Part shown: positions 24,247 to 47,678 of the stretch, one piece after another
How the letters are laid out: the number at the start of each line of letters is the position of its first letter
How positions within the stretch are numbered: position 1 is the stretch's first letter
Origin: Escherichia phage Lambda_ev058
Strand: one strand, 5' to 3'
DNA: 47,678 nucleotides
Sequence record: LR597651
Translations under genes and position numbers: made by a program
The notes under the pieces: generated by a model
Database searches by the model: none
What the model was told of the DNA's origin: nothing
The model's input: only the letters and a program-made list of their open reading frames with translations

Positions 24247-25160
24247 TATTTCTCCCTTTTCCCAGCTTTAATTCCCTGTACCAGCGTACTGGTAGTAACC
24301 TTAAGAAGGTCGATATACGTCGGTACCGGGCCGTTTTCTGTGCTCAGGGAATCGACATAGAGCACACCGCCGTAGTGTGCGCCGGTTTCACGCGCAACCT
24401 GACGCGCTGGTTTATCGGAAATCGTACTCTCGCTAAAGACTGCCGGGATATGATTTTTCTTAACTATATCAACAACCTTACGTACCTGCTGCGGTGTTCC
24501 TTGTTGATCGGCATTAATCGGCCACAGATAAAGCTCTTTTAGCCCCAAATCGCGTGCGAGATAAGAAAAAGCCCCTTCACTGGTGACCATCCATCGCTGA
24601 TTCTCAGGGAGTTCCGTAATCTGCTTACGCAGGGGGGCAAGGGTTTGGGTAATCTTGGCTTTATAAGTATCGGCATTGCGTTGGTAGGTTTGTGCATTTG
24701 CCGGATCGTATTTTATCAACGCATCACGAATATTATCGACGTAAATCAGAGCATTATCTGGCGACATCCATGCATGGGGGTTAGGTTTGCCCTCATAGGG
24801 TCCTTCGGTGATCCCTACAGGCGTCACACCCGAAGAGACAATTACTTCTGGAACCCCATTGAGATGCTGGTAAAAGCGTTGGAACCACAATTCCAGATTC
24901 ATACCATTGGCGAGAATCAGTTGTGCCCCCTGCGCACGTTTAATATCGCCAGGGGTAGGCTGATACTCATGAATTTCTGCACCAGGCTTGGTTATGGATG
25001 AGACTTCTGCAGCATCTCCCGCCACGTTTTTGGCCATATCCGCGATGATGGTAAATGTTGTAATGACCTTGAATTTTTCAGTTGCACTTGCCTGAAATGC
25101 GATCGAGCAGGTGAGTGCGAGCCCCCCCAAGAGCATGGTTACTTTTTTTATCGAGTGCAT
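24246..25160 (-). CDS. sitA: periplasmic Mn/Fe-binding protein SitA
   Basis: 304-aa protein with an N-terminal signal peptide and a TroA/cluster-9 solute-binding fold signature; first gene of the operon. Confidence 0.9.
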
Positions 25161-25192
25161 AATTTAGTACCTATAGTGAGCAAAATTAGAAC

Positions 25193-25214
25193 AAACATAG
25201 CAACGGCTATGTTT
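25193..25214. promoter_or_regulatory. MntR box upstream of sitA
   Basis: Direct: perfect inverted repeat AAACATAGC-AACG-GCTATGTTT. It matches the E. coli/Salmonella MntR operator (established). Confidence 0.75.
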
Positions 25215-25236
25215 TATAGCACAGCCTATACAAAAT

Positions 25237-25256
25237 GAAAATGATTATCATTAGCA
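25237..25256. promoter_or_regulatory. Fur box upstream of sitA
   Basis: Direct: GAAAATGATTATCATTAGC matches the Fur consensus GATAATGATAATCATTATC at 16 of 19 positions. Confidence 0.65.
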
Positions 25257-25557
25257 ACTTTGAGGCCCAAAACAGGGATTAGGTTGTTTCCTGCTGGCGA
25301 CGCGTTATTGAGGAAAAAAGTAAGGCAGCTAGTAGGCTTTGAAATAACGTTTTGCGGTTGGCTGATGCAATTTCGAGAGTGCATGTATTGAATGATTTCT
25401 AGCCGTTACTGATTTTCGTATTTTTTGTATGGGAGGATTTGCACCTCCCCCCACCGAGCCTCCATGACTTTACTCCACTGTCTCTAGGGCTGCTGTGTGC
25501 CAGGAGCGGAAGCAGGGGGGGCCAGAGACTCCTTAAAAGTTGATAGCTCGTTTTGCA

Positions 25558-25650
25558 GGGAGACTTACACGGTAAGCGTTATTCCGAAGAGCTTAAAATT
25601 GAAGCAGTCAAACGGGTTGTTGAGCGTGTTTATGCGCTGCCATCTGATTA
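25558..25650 (+). pseudogene. IS3-family transposase OrfA N-terminal remnant
   Basis: Short frame translating to GDLHGKRYSEELKIEAVKRVVERVYALPSD-stop. The KRYSEEhKhEAVK motif is typical of IS3-family OrfA N-termini; there is no start codon or full-length ORF. Confidence 0.3.
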
Positions 25651-25847
25651 ATCGACGGAAGCAGTTCCGTTTGGTCTATGATGCAGTTGTCCGGCAGGCG
25701 CTCTGTGACGCAAAAGAACGATAGGAGTAGCATTGAAGTGAACGAGGTTATGCTTGTCTTATATTATCCTCTATTTTAAAAACATCAGCTGGTTGTGTAA
25801 GAGTTTTTATTGTTTTATCTTGTTGACTTTGCTTTTATGAAAACAGA

Positions 25848-26618
25848 GTGATTGATACAATGAAAACCTTAAGTGGGAAAGAGTTTAGGAAATTATTTAA
25901 TCGTTATGAGACAGGATTCTATCTAAGTGAGTTTGAATACTTAAAGGACTTTGATCCTTTGTTTCCTGAATGCGTAGGGAAAGAATTAAAGTTGGGTTAT
26001 AAACGAAAAGTTGATGTATGGTGCGAAGAGGATGCTGCGCTATATGCAGAATTTATAGCTACAAAAGAAAGGCTGAAAAGAGGCCGGTTAATCCTAAAAA
26101 TAAACCAAGTGTGGTCGCGTGTATATCCTGCTTATATTTATGCAATTGAAGAAAGAATAAATGTCAGGGCAAAGGGGAGAGAGTCATTTAAGTATGAAAC
26201 TGTGCAAGAAAAACAATGTAAACTTTCCATAATGTTAGATGGTCTGAAAGACCTTGAATGTGAAATAGCTATGATTTCAAGTGAGTTTGAAATTGAAAAA
26301 CACTCTATGCACTATTTTTATATGATTTTTGATATTGAACGCTATATAAATGACTGCAGTTACTTTGTTTTTTCTGCTGCTAAAGTTGTTAAAGGCGTGA
26401 TTCAATGCATTGGTTACATTGACAAAAATAACAAAGCAAGTTGCGATGAATTTTATTCAGGCAGCTATGAATGCTTGGATGATGATCAGGAAACACTGAA
26501 CTATTTAAATGAATCATGCGCAGAGGGTATAGACGCTGATAAAGATCTCATCAGGAAGAATGAGTTATTAGCCTTATCCCTGAAGGAATTGTATCAACTT
26601 CTCGTTTCAAAAAAATAA
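25848..26618 (+). CDS. hypothetical protein, AT-rich accessory gene
   Basis: 256-aa ORF with strongly AT-biased codons, unlike the neighbouring phage genes; no recognised domain. Lies in the variable b-region between the sit operon and attP. Confidence 0.6.
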   Translation: MIDTMKTLSGKEFRKLFNRYETGFYLSEFEYLKDFDPLFPECVGKELKLGYKRKVDVWCEEDAALYAEFIATKERLKRGRLILKINQVWSRVYPAYIYAIEERINVRAKGRESFKYETVQEKQCKLSIMLDGLKDLECEIAMISSEFEIEKHSMHYFYMIFDIERYINDCSYFVFSAAKVVKGVIQCIGYIDKNNKASCDEFYSGSYECLDDDQETLNYLNESCAEGIDADKDLIRKNELLALSLKELYQLLVSKK

Positions 26619-27084
26619 CAAGTAATACGGCGAGCGATATGACGTGCCATGGGATATCCGCACCCAGCAGCATGTTGTCTCCACGATGTCCGCAGTTCGC
26701 TCATAATAGACATTCACTACAGTTATAGTAGAAGGTATGCATGCTGCTGAGTGGGGAAAGTGTGAAAGAAAAGAAGACAGCTGCTTTGTTTGTCGTCACG
26801 TTTATCTTCATTGGCTATGCAAGTCGTAATACAAGGCGGGACAAAACTGAGACACATAAGGCCTCGCAATGGCTTGCAAGGCCACACATGTATTGAGATG
26901 TTAATAAAATGTAGACTTGTAATTTTGATATAAATGGTAGAGAAAATCTTTCCCCAAAATAAAAACGAACGTCAATGAAATCAAACGGTTGAATAAAGTT
27001 GATTTTGGCTAATACAAAGACAAGAAAATAATATTTATGATTAAATATCAGCGAGTTGAATACATAATTTTTATATACTGTTAC

Positions 27085-27242
27085 GCCATATGGGCTGGAC
27101 TGAAGCCGCAGACCTGATTGTTAAAGGTATGGAAGGCGCAATCAACGCCAAGACTGTAACCTATGACTTCGAACGTCTGATGGAAGGCGCTAAATTGCTG
27201 AAATGTAGCGAGTTTGGCGACGCGATCATCAAGAACATGTAA
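27085..27242 (+). other. icd: phage-borne copy of the 3' end of icd (attP core region)
   Basis: Reading frame ends ...[52 protein letters not shown]-stop, i.e. the C-terminus of isocitrate dehydrogenase. Phage 21 and e14 integrate at the icd 3' end and carry a replacement copy (established). Confidence 0.8.
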
Positions 27243-27265
27243 TCACTACATGTGTTAAATATTTA

Positions 27266-27294
27266 AACGGGCGTGTTATACGCCCGTTGTTTTA
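27266..27294 (+). terminator. intrinsic terminator after the icd fragment
   Basis: Direct: AACGGGCG-loop-CGCCCGTT stem followed by GTTTTAT. Confidence 0.6.
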
Positions 27295-27309
27295 TGATGA
27301 TGTAAAATC

Positions 27310-27345
27310 TTCCCCAAAACTTTCCCCAAAACCCTTCCCCAAAAC
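27310..27345. repeat. three tandem TTCCCCAAAAC repeats, candidate integrase arm-type sites
   Basis: Direct: TTCCCCAAAAC at 27310-27320, 27322-27332 and 27335-27345, abutting the int 3' end; a fourth copy at 26949-26959 lies on the other side of the icd core. Confidence 0.6.
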
Positions 27346-27355
27346 TGGCTATTTT

Positions 27356-28498
27356 CTATGCTGTTTTGATATCTACGATAACCCAGTCTTTACCACGATC
27401 ATCATTGTATCGGTCGGTCATTTTTCTGGATTTATGGCCTAACAACTTTTGCGTATCCAGACCCTGTTCCCGATATAACCGTTCTGACAGAGATCGCTGC
27501 TCATGAAATGTGGGCGCAGTTCCTTGCTCCCATTTTATGCCACATTTTTCCCTGGCCTTTTTAAAAGCCGTTGTCAGAGTATTTGCAGAAACCTGGTCTC
27601 CTCTGTTTGCTTGAGAGGTAGTGTGACGGTAATGGACCAGATATTTACTAACAACAGCATCCCTGCACTGAGATATAACTTCACGAAGGGTAATATTCAG
27701 AGCATCGCATTTCAGGTTAAGCGGAATAGCAAGTTTTGAACCGGTTTTTTCCTGAGTAATGTGCAACATGTCGTCCCAGATATCAGAGAATTTCAAATTG
27801 CAGATATCACCTAAACGTTGTCCAGTAACAAGAGCAAGTAGCATGCCGCATTTTAAATAGGGCTGCCGTCTGCTTACGCTTTCAAATATTGCCTGCCATT
27901 CGGGCAGTGACAATCTTTGGCGGTTTACTCGATTTCGCGGTTGTTTTGTTGCCTGCGCTGGGTTAAATCCTGGCGGAACATGTCCTGCGTGTTGTGCTTC
28001 TTTGAAGACGTCGATCAACACCATTCTCACGACTTGCGCCATCCTGTTATGACCTTCAGCCTTTACAGCATCAATTATTTCGGCAATATCAAGTGCGGTA
28101 ATATCCTTGAGGTGTTGCATTCCACAATGCTCACGGAAAAGACGAATGGGTTTGCCTTTTTGCCGATAGGAGTTGGGTCTTAGTTCATTATGTTGCAGCC
28201 TGTCCTCCTGGATAGAAATATATTTATCAAGCCATTCTGTCACCGTAATTTCTGAGCGCCTGCCTTTCATTCTTTCCAGACGCTCATTGACGCTTAATAT
28301 TTGTCGGGTACGTTGTTCAGCAATAATGGTATTTGCTTCAGTAGCAACTTGTTTTGCTTCATTCTCATCAGTTCCTAAGCTATGAAAACGACCGGATAGT
28401 GGATGTTTGTATTGCCAATATACCTTTCCGGTTCGCTTATCTAATTTGCAATATAAATTGGGTATAGAGATTTTGTGAGATCGGGGTCTAGCAGCCAT
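27356..28498 (-). CDS. int: tyrosine integrase (lambda Int family, icd-targeting type)
   Basis: 380-aa ORF; C-terminus ...LLGHKSRKMTDRYNDDRGKDW resembles the lambda Int catalytic tail (LGHKS...Y..DDRG). Adjacent to xis and attP. Confidence 0.9.
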   Translation of the reverse strand: MAARPRSHKISIPNLYCKLDKRTGKVYWQYKHPLSGRFHSLGTDENEAKQVATEANTIIAEQRTRQILSVNERLERMKGRRSEITVTEWLDKYISIQEDRLQHNELRPNSYRQKGKPIRLFREHCGMQHLKDITALDIAEIIDAVKAEGHNRMAQVVRMVLIDVFKEAQHAGHVPPGFNPAQATKQPRNRVNRQRLSLPEWQAIFESVSRRQPYLKCGMLLALVTGQRLGDICNLKFSDIWDDMLHITQEKTGSKLAIPLNLKCDALNITLREVISQCRDAVVSKYLVHYRHTTSQANRGDQVSANTLTTAFKKAREKCGIKWEQGTAPTFHEQRSLSERLYREQGLDTQKLLGHKSRKMTDRYNDDRGKDWVIVDIKTA

Positions 28499-28724
28499 CA
28501 GCGATTATCCGTTGGAGTTTTGGGTTTGCGTTTATTGGGAGTTGCGGTTCTGCAAGCGTTCCTACAAAACGGGAATTTCGGTCAATCATCCAGTAGCGAC
28601 CAACTTTTATAGCGGGTGGGGCCATCATTTTCCCTTGCGCGTATTTTTTCAGAACTCGCTCACTTGGTGCTAAGTCCCCAAATTCTTCTTTAGCCCAGTC
28701 CTGTAAAGTGATTAGTCGAGACAT
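28488..28724 (-). CDS. xis: excisionase
   Basis: 78-aa ORF overlapping the int start; small basic winged-helix-type protein in the canonical position. Confidence 0.7.
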   Translation of the reverse strand: MSRLITLQDWAKEEFGDLAPSERVLKKYAQGKMMAPPAIKVGRYWMIDRNSRFVGTLAEPQLPINANPKLQRIIADGC

Positions 28725-28863
28725 TTGTCCTCCTCTTAGCTGCTGAGGGAGTTTGTGACCGATATATCTGACATGATATTAAGCTCATGGCAGGTACATC
28801 TCTTGACTGGTCATAGAGATAAATTTAATGCTGAGAAATGCAGTATTGAATTTATCAATTTTT

Positions 28864-29103
28864 CTATTTCCTGCGTATGGCACGTAACTTCTTAATGTGT
28901 TCTGCCGTTTCGATCTCTTCTGCTATCCGATCTGCATCAGCTTTATTCACAGGTTCAAAGTCATGATTAAAGCGGAACATGCTGGCGATACATGTTCTGC
29001 CTTTTCGGATGTAGTGAACTTTGTTGTAGGTAGAACGCAGGATTTTGCAGGGAGTGCCGTGGTGGTCGACGTACCAGGTGTTAGGAAAAATGATTCTGAG
29101 CAT
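28864..29103 (-). CDS. hypothetical protein
   Basis: 79-aa ORF in the int-exo accessory interval; no recognised homology. Confidence 0.45.
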   Translation of the reverse strand: MLRIIFPNTWYVDHHGTPCKILRSTYNKVHYIRKGRTCIASMFRFNHDFEPVNKADADRIAEEIETAEHIKKLRAIRRK

Positions 29104-32085: not shown

Positions 32086-32218
32086 TTTTTGGGACTCCTG
32101 GCTGATTAAGTATGTCGATAAGGCGTTTCCATCCGTCACGTAATTTACGGGTGATTCGTTCAAGTAAAGATTCGGAAGGGCAGCCAGCAACAGGCCACCC
32201 TGCAATGGCATATTGCAT
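32054..32218 (-). CDS. cIII: CIII, FtsH inhibitor that stabilises CII
   Basis: 54-aa ORF below the track cut-off; translated by hand as [54 protein letters not shown], matching lambda CIII as recalled. Confidence 0.85.
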   Translation of the reverse strand: MQYAIAGWPVAGCPSESLLERITRKLRDGWKRLIDILNQPGVPKNGSNTYGYPD

Positions 32219-32290
32219 GGTGTGCTCCTTATTTATACATAACGAAAAACGCCTCGAGTGAAGCGTTATTGGTATGCGGTAACGCCGCGC

Positions 32291-38690: not shown

Positions 38691-39401
38691 GTGCACAGAA
38701 AACCCCCAGCTAGGCTGGGGGTTCCGGAAAGCTTTCAGCTTTGAGCCAGTTATTAAAACCCCTTTTGATTTGTTAAAACACCTTGCGGTCTGGCAACTGC
38801 AAGTGTCAAACAAGAAATCAAAAGGGGGTCCCAATGGGGAACGAAAAGAGCTTAGCGCACACCCGATGGAACTGTAAATATCACATAGTTTTTGCGCCAA
38901 AATACCGAAGACAGGTGTTCTACAGAGAGAAGCGTAGAGCAATAGGCAGTATTTTGAGAAAGCTGTGTGAGTGGAAAAGCGTACGGATTCTGGAAGCTGA
39001 ATGCTGTGCAGATCATATCCATATGCTTGTGGAGATCCCGCCTAAAATGAGCGTATCCGGGTTTATGGGATATCTGAAAGGGAAAAGCAGTCTGATGCTT
39101 TACGAGCAGTTTGGTGATTTGAAATTCAAATACAGGAACAGGGAGTTCTGGTGCAGAGGGTACTACGTCGATACAGTGGGTAAGAACACGGCGAAGATAC
39201 AGGATTACATAAAGCACCAGCTTGAAGAGGATAAAATGGGAGAGCAGTTATCGATTCCCTATCCGGGCAGCCCGTTTACGGGCCGTAAGTAACGAAGTTG
39301 GATGCAAATGTCAGATCGTGTGCGCCTGTTAGGGCGCGGCTGGTAAGAGAGCCTTATAGGCGCATTTGAAAAACCTCCGGCTATGCCGGAGGATATTTAT
39401 T
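38691..39401 (+). mobile_element. IS200 insertion sequence (IS200/IS605 family)
   Basis: About 711 bp inserted in the ren-ninB spacer. Left-end stem-loop CCCCCAGC-TAG-GCTGGGGG (38702-38720), tnpA, and right-end hairpin CCTCCGG-CTATG-CCGGAGG (39374-39392). Boundaries inferred by comparison with the recalled lambda spacer; accurate to about 5 bp. Confidence 0.75.
38834..39292 (+). CDS. tnpA: IS200 transposase TnpA (Y1 HUH)
   Basis: 152-aa product from MGNEKSLAHTRWNCKYHIVFAPKYRRQ..., with the HxH motif (ADHIHML) and catalytic Tyr region; closely matches IS200 TnpA as recalled. Confidence 0.9.
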   Translation: MGNEKSLAHTRWNCKYHIVFAPKYRRQVFYREKRRAIGSILRKLCEWKSVRILEAECCADHIHMLVEIPPKMSVSGFMGYLKGKSSLMLYEQFGDLKFKYRNREFWCRGYYVDTVGKNTAKIQDYIKHQLEEDKMGEQLSIPYPGSPFTGRK

Positions 39402-41469: not shown

Positions 41470-41606
41470 TGTTTGAGTTTTATATGGCAGAACGTCTTCG
41501 CCACCGCTGGGTGCGTCTGCGCTTATATCGTTTCCCCGGTTCTGTTTTGACCGATTACCGAATACTGAAGAATTACGCCAAAACACTGACAGGAGCAGGA
41601 GTATGA
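41466..41606 (+). CDS. ylcG: YlcG-like small protein
   Basis: 46-aa ORF below the track cut-off, translated by hand as [46 protein letters not shown]; overlaps the rusA stop; matches DLP12 YlcG as recalled. Confidence 0.7.
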
Positions 41607-41691
41607 AGTCAGAGATAACAATCAACTAATACTGTTTTGCTGATTTTTGCTTGTAATTGGCGTTCTGGTCTGATTTTTGTGGAGTAAGTTG

Positions 41692-42069
41692 ATGCGTGAT
41701 ATTCAGATGGTTCTTGAGCGTTGGGGAGCGTGGGCGGCTAATAATCATGAAGATGTGACCTGGTCGTCCATTGCCGCCGGTTTTAAGGGATTAATTCCTT
41801 CAAAAGTAAAATCTCGCCCGCAATGTTGTGACGATGACGCGATGATCATTTGCGGGTGCATGGCCCGTCTGAAAAATAACAACAGCGATTTGCATGATTT
41901 GTTAGTGGACTATTATGTCGGCGGCATGACTTTTATGGCGCTTGCGCGTAAGCATGGTAGATCTGATTGTTGGATTGGCAGGATGCTCCAAAAAGCTGAG
42001 GGCGTAGTGGAGGGCATGCTGATGGTGTTGGATCTCAGATTGGAGATGGATGCTGATTGTTTGAGATAA
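41692..42069 (+). CDS. Q: late gene antiterminator Q (phage 82 / DLP12 QuuD type)
   Basis: 125-aa product from [33 protein letters not shown]..., matching the Q82-type antiterminator as recalled. Confidence 0.9.
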
Positions 42070-42168
42070 TTAAAGGAAAAGTTGCTGTCTGGTTATCATT
42101 AGACTAATGTTTCAAATGTTAGAATCGCAACGTAGTTATGATCATATAACAGCTTGTTCCCTGATTTA

Positions 42169-42198
42169 GCCAGCCTCCCCAAAGGCTGGTTTTTTTTC
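42169..42198 (+). terminator. tR'-like intrinsic terminator downstream of pR' (Q target)
   Basis: Direct: GCCAGCCT-CCCCAAA-AGGCTGG stem followed by an 8-T run, about 100 bp downstream of Q. Confidence 0.6.
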
Positions 42199-42225
42199 TA
42201 ATAAGTATCAATCCGGTTAGGTATT

Positions 42226-42750
42226 TTATTGTTTGACCCATAATAGTTCATTGACATTGAATCCCAATTTTTGAGCAGTACGCACATAGTCTGCTTTTAC
42301 ATTATCTGGAATAGTTGGAGTCCGTGCCAGAATCCATAGGTATTCTCTGTTCGGACCACTGACAAGAGCATACTTATACTCATCATCCAGTTTGATTACA
42401 TTATAGCCACCATAGAAGGGGCCAAAAAACGAAACCTTCAACGCTGCAGTTGTATTATCTCCTGTAAAGTATGCTTTACCTTCGCTCTCGCTCCATTTGT
42501 TTTTCGTTGGGTCATATCCACGATTAAGTACACTAATCCCTCCGTCGTTCCGTTTCCCATAAGTGGCGCTGACCTGTTCCAGACCACGTTCAAATCGGTT
42601 CTCAAGCCGAGCTATTTCATACCATTTTCCGAGGTAGCGGTTGGTGTCAAAATTTGTAATCGGCTGCACACCTTTAGGTGGTGTCGGGGCCTTACATGCT
42701 ATCAGAGTGAAAGAGAGTGCAATGCCAGTCAACACAGGCCATAACTTCAT
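42226..42750 (-). CDS. blc: outer-membrane lipocalin lipoprotein (Blc-like)
   Basis: 174-aa ORF with lipobox LIAC after a signal peptide; lipocalin motifs (RYLGKWYEIAR, KVSFFGPFYGGYNVI, EYLWILARTPT) matching E. coli Blc as recalled. Confidence 0.85.
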   Translation of the reverse strand: MKLWPVLTGIALSFTLIACKAPTPPKGVQPITNFDTNRYLGKWYEIARLENRFERGLEQVSATYGKRNDGGISVLNRGYDPTKNKWSESEGKAYFTGDNTTAALKVSFFGPFYGGYNVIKLDDEYKYALVSGPNREYLWILARTPTIPDNVKADYVRTAQKLGFNVNELLWVKQ

Positions 42751-42942
42751 AATATATCCTGTACTTTTGATAGTTGAGAGTAAGTATTAAAGATAGATGA
42801 TTACTACCGATCACCTAAAGAACTTTCCTACTATATTAGGAATAGTCCATAACAAAAAAATTGTCAGTGATGACGGCAGAAAGGCAGTTTAGGTCGTGTA
42901 CTACACTGTTAACCTGTTAATGAATTAGTCAAGGGGTAGGCA

Positions 42943-43902
42943 ATGATAAAAAAACCTGTCGTTGGGATCAGTGGTTGTTTGGCCGGTTCTTCTGTCCGTT
43001 TTGATGGTGGTCACAAAAGAGCTAGCTTTTTAATGGACAAATTACTGGAATGGGTAACATTCAAACCAGTATGTCCGGAAATGGCTATAGGGCTTCCAGT
43101 TCCGCGTCCTGCTCTACGTCTTGTTCGCTCGGCGCAAGGAAATATACGGATGTGTTTCAGCCACGACCAGAATGAGGATGTTACAGAGAAAATGACAGAG
43201 TTTAGTCGTTCTTATCTTGACAAATTAAAGGATGTATCGGGATTTGTGGTTTGTGCAAAATCTCCTAGCTGTGGTATGGAACGCGTGCGTGTATATGATG
43301 AAAATGGTAATCGTGGTCGTAAAGATGGAGTGGGACTATTTACGAGCACGTTGATGGAAAGGTTTTCCTGGCTACCGGTTGAAGAGGATGGGCGACTACA
43401 TGATCCAGTGCTTCGTGAAAACTTTGTTGAAAGAGTATTTGCTTTACATGAGCTCAATCATCTTTATAAAGCGAAATTATCAAGAAGGGAATTATTAGCT
43501 TTTCATAGCCGTTATAAGCTTCAGTTGTTGGCGCATAGCCAGGCCGGTTATAAAGAGATGGGGCCATTTGTGGCTGCAATACATGAGTGGGCAGACCTTG
43601 AATCATACTTTGAGGTGTATCGTGAGAAGCTGATGGCGATTCTCAGAAAACCTGCATCACGTAAAAATCACACGAATGTGCTGATGCATATACAGGGATA
43701 TTTTAGTAACTGCTTAAATACACGTCAGCGTAAAGAGTTGAGCGATGTTATACTTAACTATCGAGCTGGCACGCTACCTCTTCTTGCGCCATTAACTTTG
43801 CTGAAGCATTACTTGGCAGAGTATCCTGATGATTATTTGCTTATACAGAATTACTTCCACCCCTATCCTGATGAACTGGCTCTAAGACTCTTGGTGAACT
43901 AG
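42943..43902 (+). CDS. DUF523-DUF1722 protein (YbgA/TudS-like; putative Fe-S thiouracil or 4-thiouridine desulfidase)
   Basis: 319-aa ORF with conserved Cys at roughly 12, 44 and 105-110 (GISGCLAG, KPVCPE, VCAKSPSCG) in the N-terminal half and a YbgA-like C-terminal half. Family assignment is from memory. Confidence 0.55.
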   Translation: MIKKPVVGISGCLAGSSVRFDGGHKRASFLMDKLLEWVTFKPVCPEMAIGLPVPRPALRLVRSAQGNIRMCFSHDQNEDVTEKMTEFSRSYLDKLKDVSGFVVCAKSPSCGMERVRVYDENGNRGRKDGVGLFTSTLMERFSWLPVEEDGRLHDPVLRENFVERVFALHELNHLYKAKLSRRELLAFHSRYKLQLLAHSQAGYKEMGPFVAAIHEWADLESYFEVYREKLMAILRKPASRKNHTNVLMHIQGYFSNCLNTRQRKELSDVILNYRAGTLPLLAPLTLLKHYLAEYPDDYLLIQNYFHPYPDELALRLLVN

Positions 43903-44211
43903 GCGTTTGGAATGCACCAACAAGATGATTTTCTCCTTAGAGAATGTTTACAATCGTAAAAACTTCACTATGATATCTATAGTTGTACAGTTTGTAAAAA
44001 AATTCGGTTCATGCTTAAGGTAATGTTAATATGTTAATTAATGATTAATAATCAAGCAAGCCAAAAATAGTTCTGTTTAATCTAGTATTACATAAATATT
44101 TTAAAGAAAATATCAAAGTTCATGATGATATAATGAGATTTTTCTCATTGAAAATATGGCAATTTTAATATTTCCACCTATACTTACTTAACTCAAATCT
44201 AATTATGTCAG

Positions 44212-44952
44212 GTGGATGGTATGCCATGCATATGTTCTATCATTTTGGTTTTGAACTCGTTTGATATCCGGCTTGGTAAAGAAAAAATCTCTCTAAAAAA
44301 AGGAAGTGTTGTTGCTATAGAATACAATTTAAAAGTTTTCTTTTCTTCAAATAAAGATAATATAATGATCGTGGATATTGAAGAGAAAACAGTTAATGAC
44401 TTCTTTAAAAACAATACACTCTCACCTTTTTCTGTAAGAAGATTTTATTCAGCATACTTGATAGTAAACTGTACAGACTATTCATTGTTAAAGAACTTGA
44501 TAGGTTGCTTGAATTGTGATGGTGAAACTACGGCTGTAGTTAAAAATTCAATATTATTTGCATGTCTTGCTATTTTATCCTCGGAAAAAATGTTTCAGAG
44601 TTTTTTGTTTGGGTGTCTTAATAGTTTAGGAAGCAAAGTTAAGGCTATTATTCACTCGGACATATCTGCAGCATGGAGACTTTGTGATATTTCTTCAAGA
44701 CTATGTCTGAGTGAAAGTTTGTTAAAAAGAAAACTAAAACACGAAGGCTTATCATTTAGCAAATTAATTCTTGAAGAACGAATGGTGATGGCTGAAAGGT
44801 TATTAAGCTACAATTTCTATCCTGTTGGGAAAGTTGCTAAAATATGTGGTTATGAAAGCGCGTCATATTTTATAAGTGTTTTCAGAAGATATTTTGGTGT
44901 TCCCCCCCATGAATATTCATCAAGATTTTTTTTAGAAAAAGGCAAGATGTAA
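44212..44952 (+). CDS. AraC/XylS-family transcriptional regulator (AT-rich; Rns/PerA/PatE-like)
   Basis: 246-aa ORF with a C-terminal double-HTH AraC signature (KVAKICGYESASYFISVFRRYFGVPPHEY); strongly AT-rich gene and upstream region. Start codon uncertain. Confidence 0.75.
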   Translation: MDGMPCICSIILVLNSFDIRLGKEKISLKKGSVVAIEYNLKVFFSSNKDNIMIVDIEEKTVNDFFKNNTLSPFSVRRFYSAYLIVNCTDYSLLKNLIGCLNCDGETTAVVKNSILFACLAILSSEKMFQSFLFGCLNSLGSKVKAIIHSDISAAWRLCDISSRLCLSESLLKRKLKHEGLSFSKLILEERMVMAERLLSYNFYPVGKVAKICGYESASYFISVFRRYFGVPPHEYSSRFFLEKGKM

Positions 44953-45013
44953 CGTGATGCGTTTTGATGATTTTGTAATTTTCATATTTGATGATTATAT
45001 GATGCTTTCAGCT

Positions 45014-45044
45014 ACGCCAGAATAATCGCTGGCGTTTTTCTTTT
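45014..45044 (+). terminator. intrinsic terminator after the AraC-family gene
   Basis: Direct: CGCCAG-AATAAT-CGCTGGCG stem followed by TTTTTCTTTT. Confidence 0.55.
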
Positions 45045-45119
45045 CTAATGTAACTTCTGTATCTTTCCCTCTTTCATTCCAAACCGTGTACACCATCCGT
45101 TATTCGCGGAGGTGAGGCT

Positions 45120-45335
45120 ATGAAATCCATGGACAAGTTAACAACGGGCATTGCCTACGGCACCTCTGCAGGCAGTGCTGGCTACTGGTTTTTACAGTGG
45201 CTTGATCAGGTCAGTCCGTCACAGTGGGCGGCGATTGGAGTGCTTGGAAGCCTTGTGTTGGGTTTTCTCACTTATCTGACAAACCTTTATTTCAAGATTA
45301 AAGAAGATAAGCGTAAGGCTGCGAGAGGTGAATAA
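45120..45335 (+). CDS. S: holin, phage-21-type pinholin (class II, dual start)
   Basis: 71-aa [53 protein letters not shown]... with the M1-K2-S3-M4 dual-start motif and two TMDs; matches S21 as recalled. Confidence 0.9.
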
Positions 45336-45832
45336 TGTCGCCATCATTACGCAAGGCTGTAGCAGCTGCTATTGGTGGTGGGGCTGTTGCCATAGCGTCT
45401 GTGCTCATCACTGGTCCGAGTGGTGACGATGGTCTGGAAGGTGTCAGCTACATACCATATAAAGATATTGTTGGTGTATGGACTGTATGTCACGGGCATA
45501 CAGGAAAAGACATCATGCTCGGTAAAACGTATACCAAAGCAGAATGCAAAGCACTCTTGAATAAAGACCTTGCCACTGTCGCCAGACAAATTAACCCGTA
45601 CATCAAAGTCGATATACCGGAAACAACGCGCGGCGCTCTTTACTCATTCGTTTACAACGTGGGTGCTGGCAATTTCAGAACATCGACGCTTCTTCGCAAA
45701 ATAAACCAGGGCGATATCAAAGGCGCATGTGATCAGTTACGTCGCTGGACATATGCTGGCGGTAAGCAATGGAAAGGTCTCATGACTCGTCGTGAGATTG
45801 AGCGTGAAATCTGTTTGTGGGGTCAGCAATGA
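45335..45832 (+). CDS. R: SAR endolysin (phage-21-type lysozyme)
   Basis: 165-aa ORF with an N-terminal signal-anchor-release segment ([20 protein letters not shown]) and T4-lysozyme-like E..D..T catalytic spacing; matches R21 as recalled. Confidence 0.9.
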
Positions 45833-47169: not shown

Positions 47170-47326
47170 GAGGTTGCCCCGTATTCAGTGTCGCTGATTT
47201 GTATTGTCTGAAGTTGTTTTTACGTTAAGTTGATGCAGATCAATTAATACGATACCTGCGTCATAATTGATTATTTGACGTGGTTTGATGGCGTAGATGC
47301 ACGTTGTGACATGTAGATGATAATTA

Positions 47327-47678
47327 CTGTCTCTTATACACATCTCCGAGCCCACGAGACTAAGGCGAATCTCGTATGCCGTCTTCTGCTTGAAAAAAAA
47401 AATTGTCACGTACAAAGAAAGTAGCATTCCAATGGTCTATCAGGTAATCTTTAACAAAACGTTGAATACCAAAAGCGCCTACACCATCACTTGCTAAGCG
47501 GCTGTTGAACCACTTCTCACTACGGAGATGTGTAGAAGAGAAAGAATAGGATTGAGGTAACTGGGCTTGATTATAATGGTAAGATCGATAGTGTGATAAG
47601 ATTTTTTTTTTTTCAAGCAGAAGACGGCATACGAGATTCGCCTTAGTCTCGTGGGCTCGGAGATGTGTATAAGAGACA
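47327..47678. other. sequencing artefact: Illumina Nextera/P7 adapter sequences in inverted orientation flanking a ~200-bp unrelated insert
   Basis: Direct: 47327-47392 reads CTGTCTCTTATACACATCTCCGAGCCCACGAGAC + TAAGGCGA + ATCTCGTATGCCGTCTTCTGCTTG, then a 10-A run. 47614-47678 is its reverse complement (CAAGCAGAAGACGGCATACGAGAT...AGATGTGTATAAGAGACA), preceded by a T-run. These are the Tn5 mosaic end, an i7 index and the P7 sequence. Confidence 0.95.

Follow-up and report, generated by a model that had tools for sequence, protein, structure and literature searches.

A probable tRNA 4-thiouridine desulfidase, RudS, on an accessory module between the antiterminator and holin genes of lambdoid coliphages

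Enzymes that erase tRNA modifications are rare in bacteria, and the gene considered here, rudS, travels on temperate phages in the slot where Stx phages carry their toxin genes. The name RudS was given by Jamontas et al. (2024, NAR 52:10543; PMC11417400) to fusions of a TudS domain with a DUF1722 domain, and one of the proteins in their Table 1, RudS_vir, is gp66 of Escherichia phage 1H12. We analysed the genome of Escherichia phage Lambda_ev058 (sequence record LR597651), a lambdoid coliphage whose 47,678 nucleotides are called the window below and in which rudS lies between the antiterminator gene Q and the holin gene S. Its product is identical to gp66 (YP_009909557) at 319 of 319 positions, and the same flanking genes are found in phage 1H12 at 99.9% DNA identity. 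We are highly confident that the phage protein is RudS, a [4Fe-4S] enzyme that removes the sulfur of 4-thiouridine (s4U) in tRNA, and it is probable that the locus as a whole is best explained as a three-gene accessory module carrying this desulfidase, perhaps for lysogenic conversion. Since the identical protein was already assayed in 2024, the molecular function is already known, and what is new here is the context of the locus and its prevalence in Escherichia coli.

Published RudS enzymes and the phage protein

When six RudS orthologues were overexpressed in E. coli, tRNA s4U fell 4.7- to 26-fold as measured by high-performance liquid chromatography with tandem mass spectrometry (HPLC-MS/MS); 2-thiocytidine was unchanged, and neither stand-alone TudS nor YbgA had any effect on tRNA s4U (PMC11417400). 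Substitution of the cysteines abolished activity in most of the orthologues, and mutagenesis of RudS_KT defined a catalytic Glu, two Ser and an Arg, while a model of this protein placed DUF1722 on the anticodon arm of the tRNA (PMC11417400). RudS_KT (Pseudomonas putida PP_0741) has the same TudS-DUF1722 build as the phage protein but is distant in sequence, and it was the only orthologue for which in vitro desulfidation, tRNA gel shifts (electrophoretic mobility shift assay, EMSA) and an ultraviolet A (UVA) phenotype were reported, its overexpression shortening the UVA growth delay from ~105 to ~60 min (PMC11417400). The gene for RudS_vir was synthesised for that study, its cysteines were given as positions 12, 44 and 110, and its overexpression in E. 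coli lowered tRNA s4U; phage context, expression, neighbouring genes and prevalence in E. coli were outside the scope of the work (PMC11417400). The desulfidase activity that an earlier reading of the window from its sequence alone (the original prediction) had proposed is thus already on record for an identical protein.

The rudS open reading frame (ORF) runs from an ATG to a TAG codon, with a Shine-Dalgarno-like AAGGGG ~7 nt upstream of the ATG. Two Pfam profiles match the one polypeptide over their full lengths with scores far over the gathering scores, namely PF04463 ("2-thiouracil desulfurase", TudS/DUF523) at residues 7 to 149 (profile 1-141 of 141, E 3.6e-40) and, C-terminal to it, PF08349 (DUF1722) at residues 192 to 309 (profile 1-117 of 117, E 1.3e-40). 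Among solved structures, the only relative found by a sequence search is TudS, with 6Z92 and four further entries (phmmer E 8.9e-5). In the alignment with 6Z92, the three cysteines that bind the cluster in the crystallised enzyme, C10, C43 and C104, are matched by C12, C44 and C110. CPE and SPSCG motifs are common to both proteins, with E46 and the SPSC motif aligned. The 319-residue ORF, its two-domain build and cysteine pattern, its place between Q and S and its assignment to the TudS/YbgA-like DUF523-DUF1722 family all agree with the original prediction, as does the presence of the Fe-S cysteine triad. In an alignment of 13 homologues reaching down to 45% identity, six residues (C12, C44, E46, R55, S107 and C110) do not vary, and S109 is nearly constant, with a Thr in one homologue. 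All seven Fe-S and catalytic residues are kept in 80 of 80 viral loci, the viral counts given here being those for the best 80 of 147 IMG/VR contigs. E46, R55, S107 and S109 would correspond to Glu51, Arg60, Ser111 and Ser113 of RudS_KT, as judged by their offset from the cysteines and not by alignment.

An AlphaFold model built on a shallow alignment (at least 71% identity) had low confidence, with a mean predicted local distance difference test (pLDDT) score of 59.7, and was used solely for a fold search against the PDB. The first four Foldseek ranks were all TudS (6Z96, 6ZW9, 6Z92 and 6Z93; probability 1.00, target template modelling (TM) score 0.58 to 0.64), and every match other than TudS had an E value of 1 or more.

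Two simpler identities were considered and rejected. Stand-alone TudS (6Z92/6Z96) has a homologous catalytic domain with the same three cysteine ligands and the same Glu/Ser motif, but it is a single domain of ~160 residues that acts on free bases and nucleotides and does not lower tRNA s4U, whereas the phage protein adds DUF1722 and acts on tRNA; 319 residues with a full DUF1722 do not fit a single-domain family of ~150 to 166 residues. YbgA of E. coli (b0707, ~169 residues) is a stand-alone DUF1722 that lacks the catalytic domain and is homologous to residues 160 to 315 of the phage protein. The NCBIfam model for YbgA (PRK10167/NF007549) gave 189.6 bits (E 3.4e-56) against an equivalog cutoff of 237 and matched only that part of the 319 residues. 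As the model scores under its cutoff and covers the C-terminal half only, the protein is to be regarded as a full TudS-DUF1722 fusion.

By homology, the three cysteines would hold a [4Fe-4S] cluster, the thio group would bind to its free iron, and Glu46, held in place by Arg55, Ser107 and Ser109, would activate a water molecule. The N-terminal TudS domain would in this way convert s4U at position 8/9 of the tRNA to uridine, with the C-terminal DUF1722 domain presumably gripping the anticodon arm.

The published data on RudS_vir also bear on a different role, namely salvage or detoxification, in which the phage enzyme would mainly act on free 4-thiouracil or 4-thio-uridine monophosphate (4-thio-UMP) and recycle thiolated pyrimidines from RNA turnover. 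RudS_vir had the shortest lag on 4-thiouracil among the RudS proteins, and it combined a relatively high protein level with comparatively low tRNA desulfidation, below that of RudS_ST at a similar protein level (PMC11417400). TudS enzymes recycle 4-thio-UMP (PMC10611767). We nevertheless consider a salvage role improbable. Growth of cells with RudS_vir on 4-thiouracil was delayed and came later than with TudS, there was none on 2-thiouracil, and RudS_vir did lower tRNA s4U (PMC11417400). The tRNA-binding DUF1722 domain is full length and under purifying selection, and the pool of nucleotides derived from s4U would be tiny. Of the substrates named in the original prediction, s4U in tRNA therefore stands as the main one, while the free thionucleobases do not.

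Distribution, exchange and origin of the module

Full-length rudS (at least 80% coverage) was found in 1064 of 5426 complete E. coli genomes, about a fifth, with 110 of the matching genomes at 99% identity or more and 971 at 90 to 95%. Some part of the module between Q and S, which consists of a lipocalin gene (blc), rudS and a gene for an AraC-like regulator, is present in 1152 of the 5426 genomes, and the Q antiterminator adjoins it in every E. coli locus among the matches listed. Approximately 450 genomes match only the part with the terminator, blc and rudS, the AraC-like segment being divergent or disrupted in them. Two E. coli prophage loci that were compared in detail have the same Q-to-holin module on different backbones, one lambda-like (cII/O/P/nin) and the other Qin-like (hokD/rem/ydfU). 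Relatives of rudS also occur in 147 IMG/VR contigs, and the ORF of 319 codons was intact in all 80 viral loci, 71 of which have the full order Q-blc-rudS-araC-holin. The dN/dS ratio (nonsynonymous to synonymous substitution rates) was 0.11 to 0.13 at a dS of 0.29 between two prophage rudS alleles and 0.05 to 0.16 for chromosomal orthologues, and these low values together with the intact ORFs argue that rudS is maintained by purifying selection.

E. coli is said to lack RudS in the 2024 paper (PMC11417400) and in a 2026 review (PMC13602947), which is true of K-12-type strains but not of about one-fifth of the sequenced strains. The original prediction had called the gene an unusual cargo; given its frequency in E. 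coli genomes and viral contigs and the 2024 assay, it is neither rare nor unstudied. Prophage rudS genes are labelled "YbgA family protein" in RefSeq, which understates the product, and "unknown function" in PHROGs (phrog_3275), and both labels could be updated. In a single E. coli record (P0002, 403 residues), RudS (94% identity over 92% of the query) is joined to a GGDEF domain, which could be a real fusion or an artefact of gene calling or assembly.

The place of the module is that of the known Q-S cargo of lambdoid phages, such as stx in Stx phages and the nmpC/ompD porin gene in DLP12-like phages, which occupies the same slot from Q and tR' to the holin. Unlike these, the cargo here is an eraser of a tRNA modification together with a lipocalin and a regulator. 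Many sister coliphages have an OmpD/NmpC-type porin gene on the minus strand of the Q-to-holin slot, among them phage ev243 (locus L156, 1253-3125), whose Q and lysis genes are ~93 to 94% identical to those of Lambda_ev058. In a blastn comparison, homology to ev243 ends at 42051 and restarts at 45109, with sharp breakpoints 18 nt before the Q stop codon and 11 nt before the holin start, and a short ATATAACAG box is common to the two phages. These breakpoints identify the whole Q-S interval as one exchangeable module. The G+C content is 42.7% for rudS, 43.6% for blc and 31.6% for the AraC-like gene against 49.9% for the whole window, and by its slot, the replacement of cargo and its deviant base composition the interval is a lambdoid Q-S accessory module. 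A 3.8-kb stretch around rudS is 99.9 to 100% identical to ten phage records (Lambda_2E9, ev203, ev087, 1H12 and others).

Outside E. coli, the nearest relatives of the phage protein are chromosomal and 68 to 76% identical (Citrobacter, Klebsiella, Buttiauxella, Serratia, Kluyvera, Kosakonia and others), a level at which no donor species could be identified among them. The chromosomal RudS proteins of the Enterobacterales, exemplified by RudS_ST (Salmonella LT2 STM1389/ORF319), also have 319 residues with cysteines at 12, 44 and 110, and a Salmonella enterica homologue (P0041) is 74% identical to the phage RudS. In 21 chromosomal loci, rudS is preceded by an oppositely oriented lipocalin gene whose product is 73 to 81% identical to that of the phage. 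The lipocalin gene adjoins rudS directly in ten Kluyvera loci (spacer of ~115 bp) and is 1 to 1.5 kb away in Kosakonia, Buttiauxella, Enterobacter, Lelliottia, Raoultella and Huaxiibacter, with a MerR/MlrA-type regulator between the two genes in the Kosakonia locus examined. In Klebsiella, rudS lies 3' of the cyclopropane-fatty-acid synthase gene (cfa) and a DUF3833 gene. The chromosomal rudS genes have 51 to 63% G+C and are often next to a MerR/MlrA-type gene or cfa/DUF3833, whereas the phage gene has a far lower G+C content, no MerR gene and an AraC-like neighbour, which was never found beside rudS in the chromosomal loci compared. The recurrence of the blc-rudS pairing in phages and on chromosomes (for example, loci L029, L035, L037, L039, L043, L046-L048, L050, L057 and L024) suggests a conserved functional pair, which is not discussed in the RudS literature examined.

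The spacer between blc and rudS in the phage was considered as a remnant of a MerR gene of the Kosakonia type, and this was rejected as tblastn and blastn gave no signal; the comparison with the Kluyvera spacers showed shared motifs that were only scattered. From the arrangement of these loci, we infer that the phage acquired blc and rudS together from a stress locus on an enterobacterial chromosome, leaving the MerR regulator behind, and that the AraC-like gene was gained or joined later. The dS between phage rudS and its chromosomal relatives is saturated and the phage genes are more AT-rich than any sampled orthologue, which indicates that the capture is old or that the donor has not been sampled.

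Possible roles in the lysogen and during lytic growth

The base s4U8 is a near-UV chromophore that forms a cross-link to C13, leading to growth delay and a burst of guanosine tetraphosphate (ppGpp), and chromosomal rudS genes are located in light-responsive or MerR-controlled loci. The role that we favour, although only tentatively, is lysogenic conversion that blunts near-UV damage to tRNA. YbgA, a remnant with DUF1722 alone, is all that E. coli has natively, and a lysogen would regain an s4U eraser. The loss of s4U in the lysogen would be expected to lessen the formation of s4U8-C13 cross-links under near-UV light, and with it the growth delay and the stringent response. As rudS is on the strand of the late transcript and 3' of both Q and a tR'-like terminator, strong transcription would also be expected after induction, and RudS could then sustain translation when sunlight is the inducer.

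A related role, compatible with lysogenic conversion, is that of a helper of late gene expression, where RudS produced from the Q-antiterminated transcript would erase s4U such that UV-damaged tRNA neither stalls translation nor raises ppGpp. s4U has a link to the SOS response, and RudS may also let this response and induction proceed under sunlight. The layout agrees with such a role: rudS is on the plus strand, 3' of Q and its tR'-like terminator and 5' of the holin gene, only terminators separate it from Q, and the scan revealed no good autonomous promoter upstream of it. Polymerase modified by Q should read through these terminators, and UV is a natural inducer of lambdoid prophages. We nevertheless regard this role as unlikely. 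Late expression would leave little time for removal of the modification from a stable tRNA pool, and the terminator before the holin gene (Table 1) is consistent with independent transcription of the cassette in lysogens as well. In addition, a host deleted for thiI, which has no s4U, supports lambda replication slightly but significantly less well, although the thiI mutation also alters thiamine synthesis and sulfur flux. The loss of s4U therefore brings no inherent benefit to lytic growth in the dark, and the suggestion in the original prediction that the enzyme reshapes translation during lytic growth finds no support.

The lambda result counts against lysogenic conversion by near-UV protection as well, and several further points weigh in the same direction. 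E. coli lives mainly in the gut and receives little UV. The phage module lacks the MerR regulator that senses light in the chromosomal loci. A scan of 41600 to 45400 revealed no convincing autonomous promoter ahead of rudS, and promoter-like sites occur there at chance frequency, so that expression in the lysogen is conjectural. The data on RudS_vir all come from plasmid overexpression in BL21(DE3) rather than from a lysogen or an infection, and the UVA experiment was done with RudS_KT and not with RudS_vir (PMC11417400). Finally, the low tRNA activity of RudS_vir taken together with its short lag on 4-thiouracil means that its preferred substrate may not be tRNA.

The original prediction had also proposed that s4U removal counters a host defence. 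In its broader form, RudS would shield the phage from, or arm the lysogen with, a system that reads tRNA thiolation, including in superinfection. Genes carried between Q and S often affect conflicts between host and phage, in Vibrio cholerae the loss of s4U acts through the degradosome on the stability of some tRNAs, and E. coli overexpressing RudS_KT has ~2-fold less tRNA-Ser and tRNA-Tyr. However, no PADLOC model was matched by RudS, the lipocalin or the AraC-like protein, and a literature search for links of thiI or s4U to anti-phage defence retrieved only DNA phosphorothioation and unrelated systems. The window contains no tRNA genes that would suggest tRNA warfare, and thus nothing points to a set of phage tRNAs tied to the eraser. 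The counter-defence proposal is therefore without support, and we consider it very improbable.

Lysogenic conversion thus remains the reading that we prefer, and a bolder version of it can be formulated, which we consider doubtful. The blc-rudS prophage module would be a widespread and overlooked conversion trait that takes away the near-UV sensor in tRNA and in this way uncouples sunlight from growth arrest and the stringent response. If this were true, about one-fifth of E. coli strains would have an s4U eraser that is otherwise absent from the species, and lysogen survival outside the gut, prophage induction and completion of the lytic cycle under solar UV would all be altered. Because intact prophage rudS is so common in E. 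coli, prophages could determine how strains differ in the amount of s4U, the growth delay after UVA, the stringent response and possibly the stability of tRNA. The residual interest of the locus is modest and lies in the biology of the phage and its lysogens and in the overlooked prevalence in E. coli.

Layout of the Q-to-holin interval and other features of the window

The coordinates of the module and its surroundings are collected in Table 1.

Table 1. Features of the Q-to-holin interval of phage Lambda_ev058 (positions in the window)
Feature	Positions	Strand	Basis and remarks
Q antiterminator	41677-42069	+	PF06530 Phage_antitermQ, full profile, E 2.5e-51; ORF start TTG 41677, start in 1H12 (gp64) ATG 41692
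Promoter-like site, candidate pR' (TGGAGA, 18-nt spacer, extended -10 TG-GATAAT)	42041-42070	+	Consensus scan; overlaps end of Q
Exchangeable Q-S module	42052-45108		blastn breakpoints against ev243
Strong intrinsic terminator at tR' position	42168-42200	+	9-bp GC-rich stem, then T9
Blc-type outer-membrane lipocalin lipoprotein, divergent from rudS	42226-42750	-	PF08212, E 2.2e-43
blc-rudS divergent spacer, 192 bp	42751-42942		Sequence, promoter scan
rudS, very probable tRNA 4-thiouridine desulfidase	42943-43902	+	319/319 identity to RudS_vir (phage 1H12 gp66), Pfam domains
TudS/DUF523 catalytic domain, residues 7-149	42961-43389	+	PF04463, TudS 6Z92 alignment, Foldseek
Fe-S ligand codons C12, C44, C110	42976-42978, 43072-43074, 43270-43272	+	
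DUF1722 domain, residues 192-309, homologous to E. coli YbgA	43516-43869	+	PF08349
Best promoter-like site of the interval (TTTACA, 16-nt spacer, TATGAT; 10/12)	43947-43974	+	Consensus match only; upstream of AraC-like gene
AraC-family regulator, YdeO/GadX-like, 31.6% GC	44212-44952	+	PF12833 and PF00165; start in 1H12 ATG 44221
Intrinsic terminator-like hairpin and T-run	45014-45045	+	75 nt before holin start
P21-type holin S, first gene of lysis cassette	45120-45335	+	PF04971, E 3e-35

The consensus scan of 41600 to 45400 found 12 promoter-like sites where 11 were expected by chance, so it is only the position of the pR' candidate that speaks for it, and no convincing sigma-70 promoter was seen in the blc-rudS spacer. 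The terminator after Q has a predicted RNA fold of -16.3 kcal/mol (z = -3.8; none of 200 shuffled sequences was as stable) and is conserved in the E. coli allele of 92% identity. Together, the promoter-like site and this terminator have the layout expected of a late promoter and tR' and are candidates for these elements. The hairpin before the holin gene has a fold of -12.1 kcal/mol (z = -2.15) and is kept in an E. coli prophage (L001) with a 1-nt deletion in the stem; as a terminator, it would halt transcripts without Q modification ahead of the lysis genes. An Rfam scan of the window gave no match inside the Q-S module, its only matches being the STnc490 and cIII elements described below.

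The lipocalin reaches 315.5 bits with the NCBIfam model NF007786 for Blc against a cutoff of 267, and its signal peptide ends in a lipobox-like LIAC. A 309-bp AT-rich gap separates rudS from the AraC-like gene, whose best NCBIfam match is YdeO with 112.7 bits, far under the cutoff, and which PHROGs lists as phrog_1450 of "unknown function". This gene is the variable part of the module, being frameshifted in prophage L001, ~80% identical in a second E. coli prophage (L002) and missing or shortened in several viral loci. Its product may be one of the group that includes AppY and PatE, AraC-like proteins from prophages that control acid resistance and virulence. The holin gene is followed by genes for lysozyme, a spanin ORF (according to the 1H12 annotation) and Bor.

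Elsewhere, the 3' end of the window (47327-47678) is an Illumina Nextera adapter chimera, that is, an assembly artefact and not phage sequence. It consists, in order, of the mosaic end CTGTCTCTTATACACATCT, CCGAGCCCACGAGAC, the index TAAGGCGA, ATCTCGTATGCCGTCTTCTGCTTG, a poly-A run, ~190 nt of unrelated sequence and the reverse complement of the adapter, and the peptide FFFKQKTAYEIRLSLVGSEMCIRDS of the minus-strand ORF at 47185-47427 is a translation of this chimera. A lambda cIII thermoregulator element (Rfam RF01804, 88.5 bits) at 32173-32231 on the minus strand confirms a lambda-type early-left region. At 38701-38824 on the plus strand, upstream of the nin-region genes, there is a full-length match to Rfam STnc490, an Hfq-binding small RNA, with 146 bits against a gathering score of 56. 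The stretch 25001-29000 has a G+C content of 37 to 42% compared with 55 to 60% in the half of the genome with the structural genes, and it is probably another accessory or b-region-like segment.

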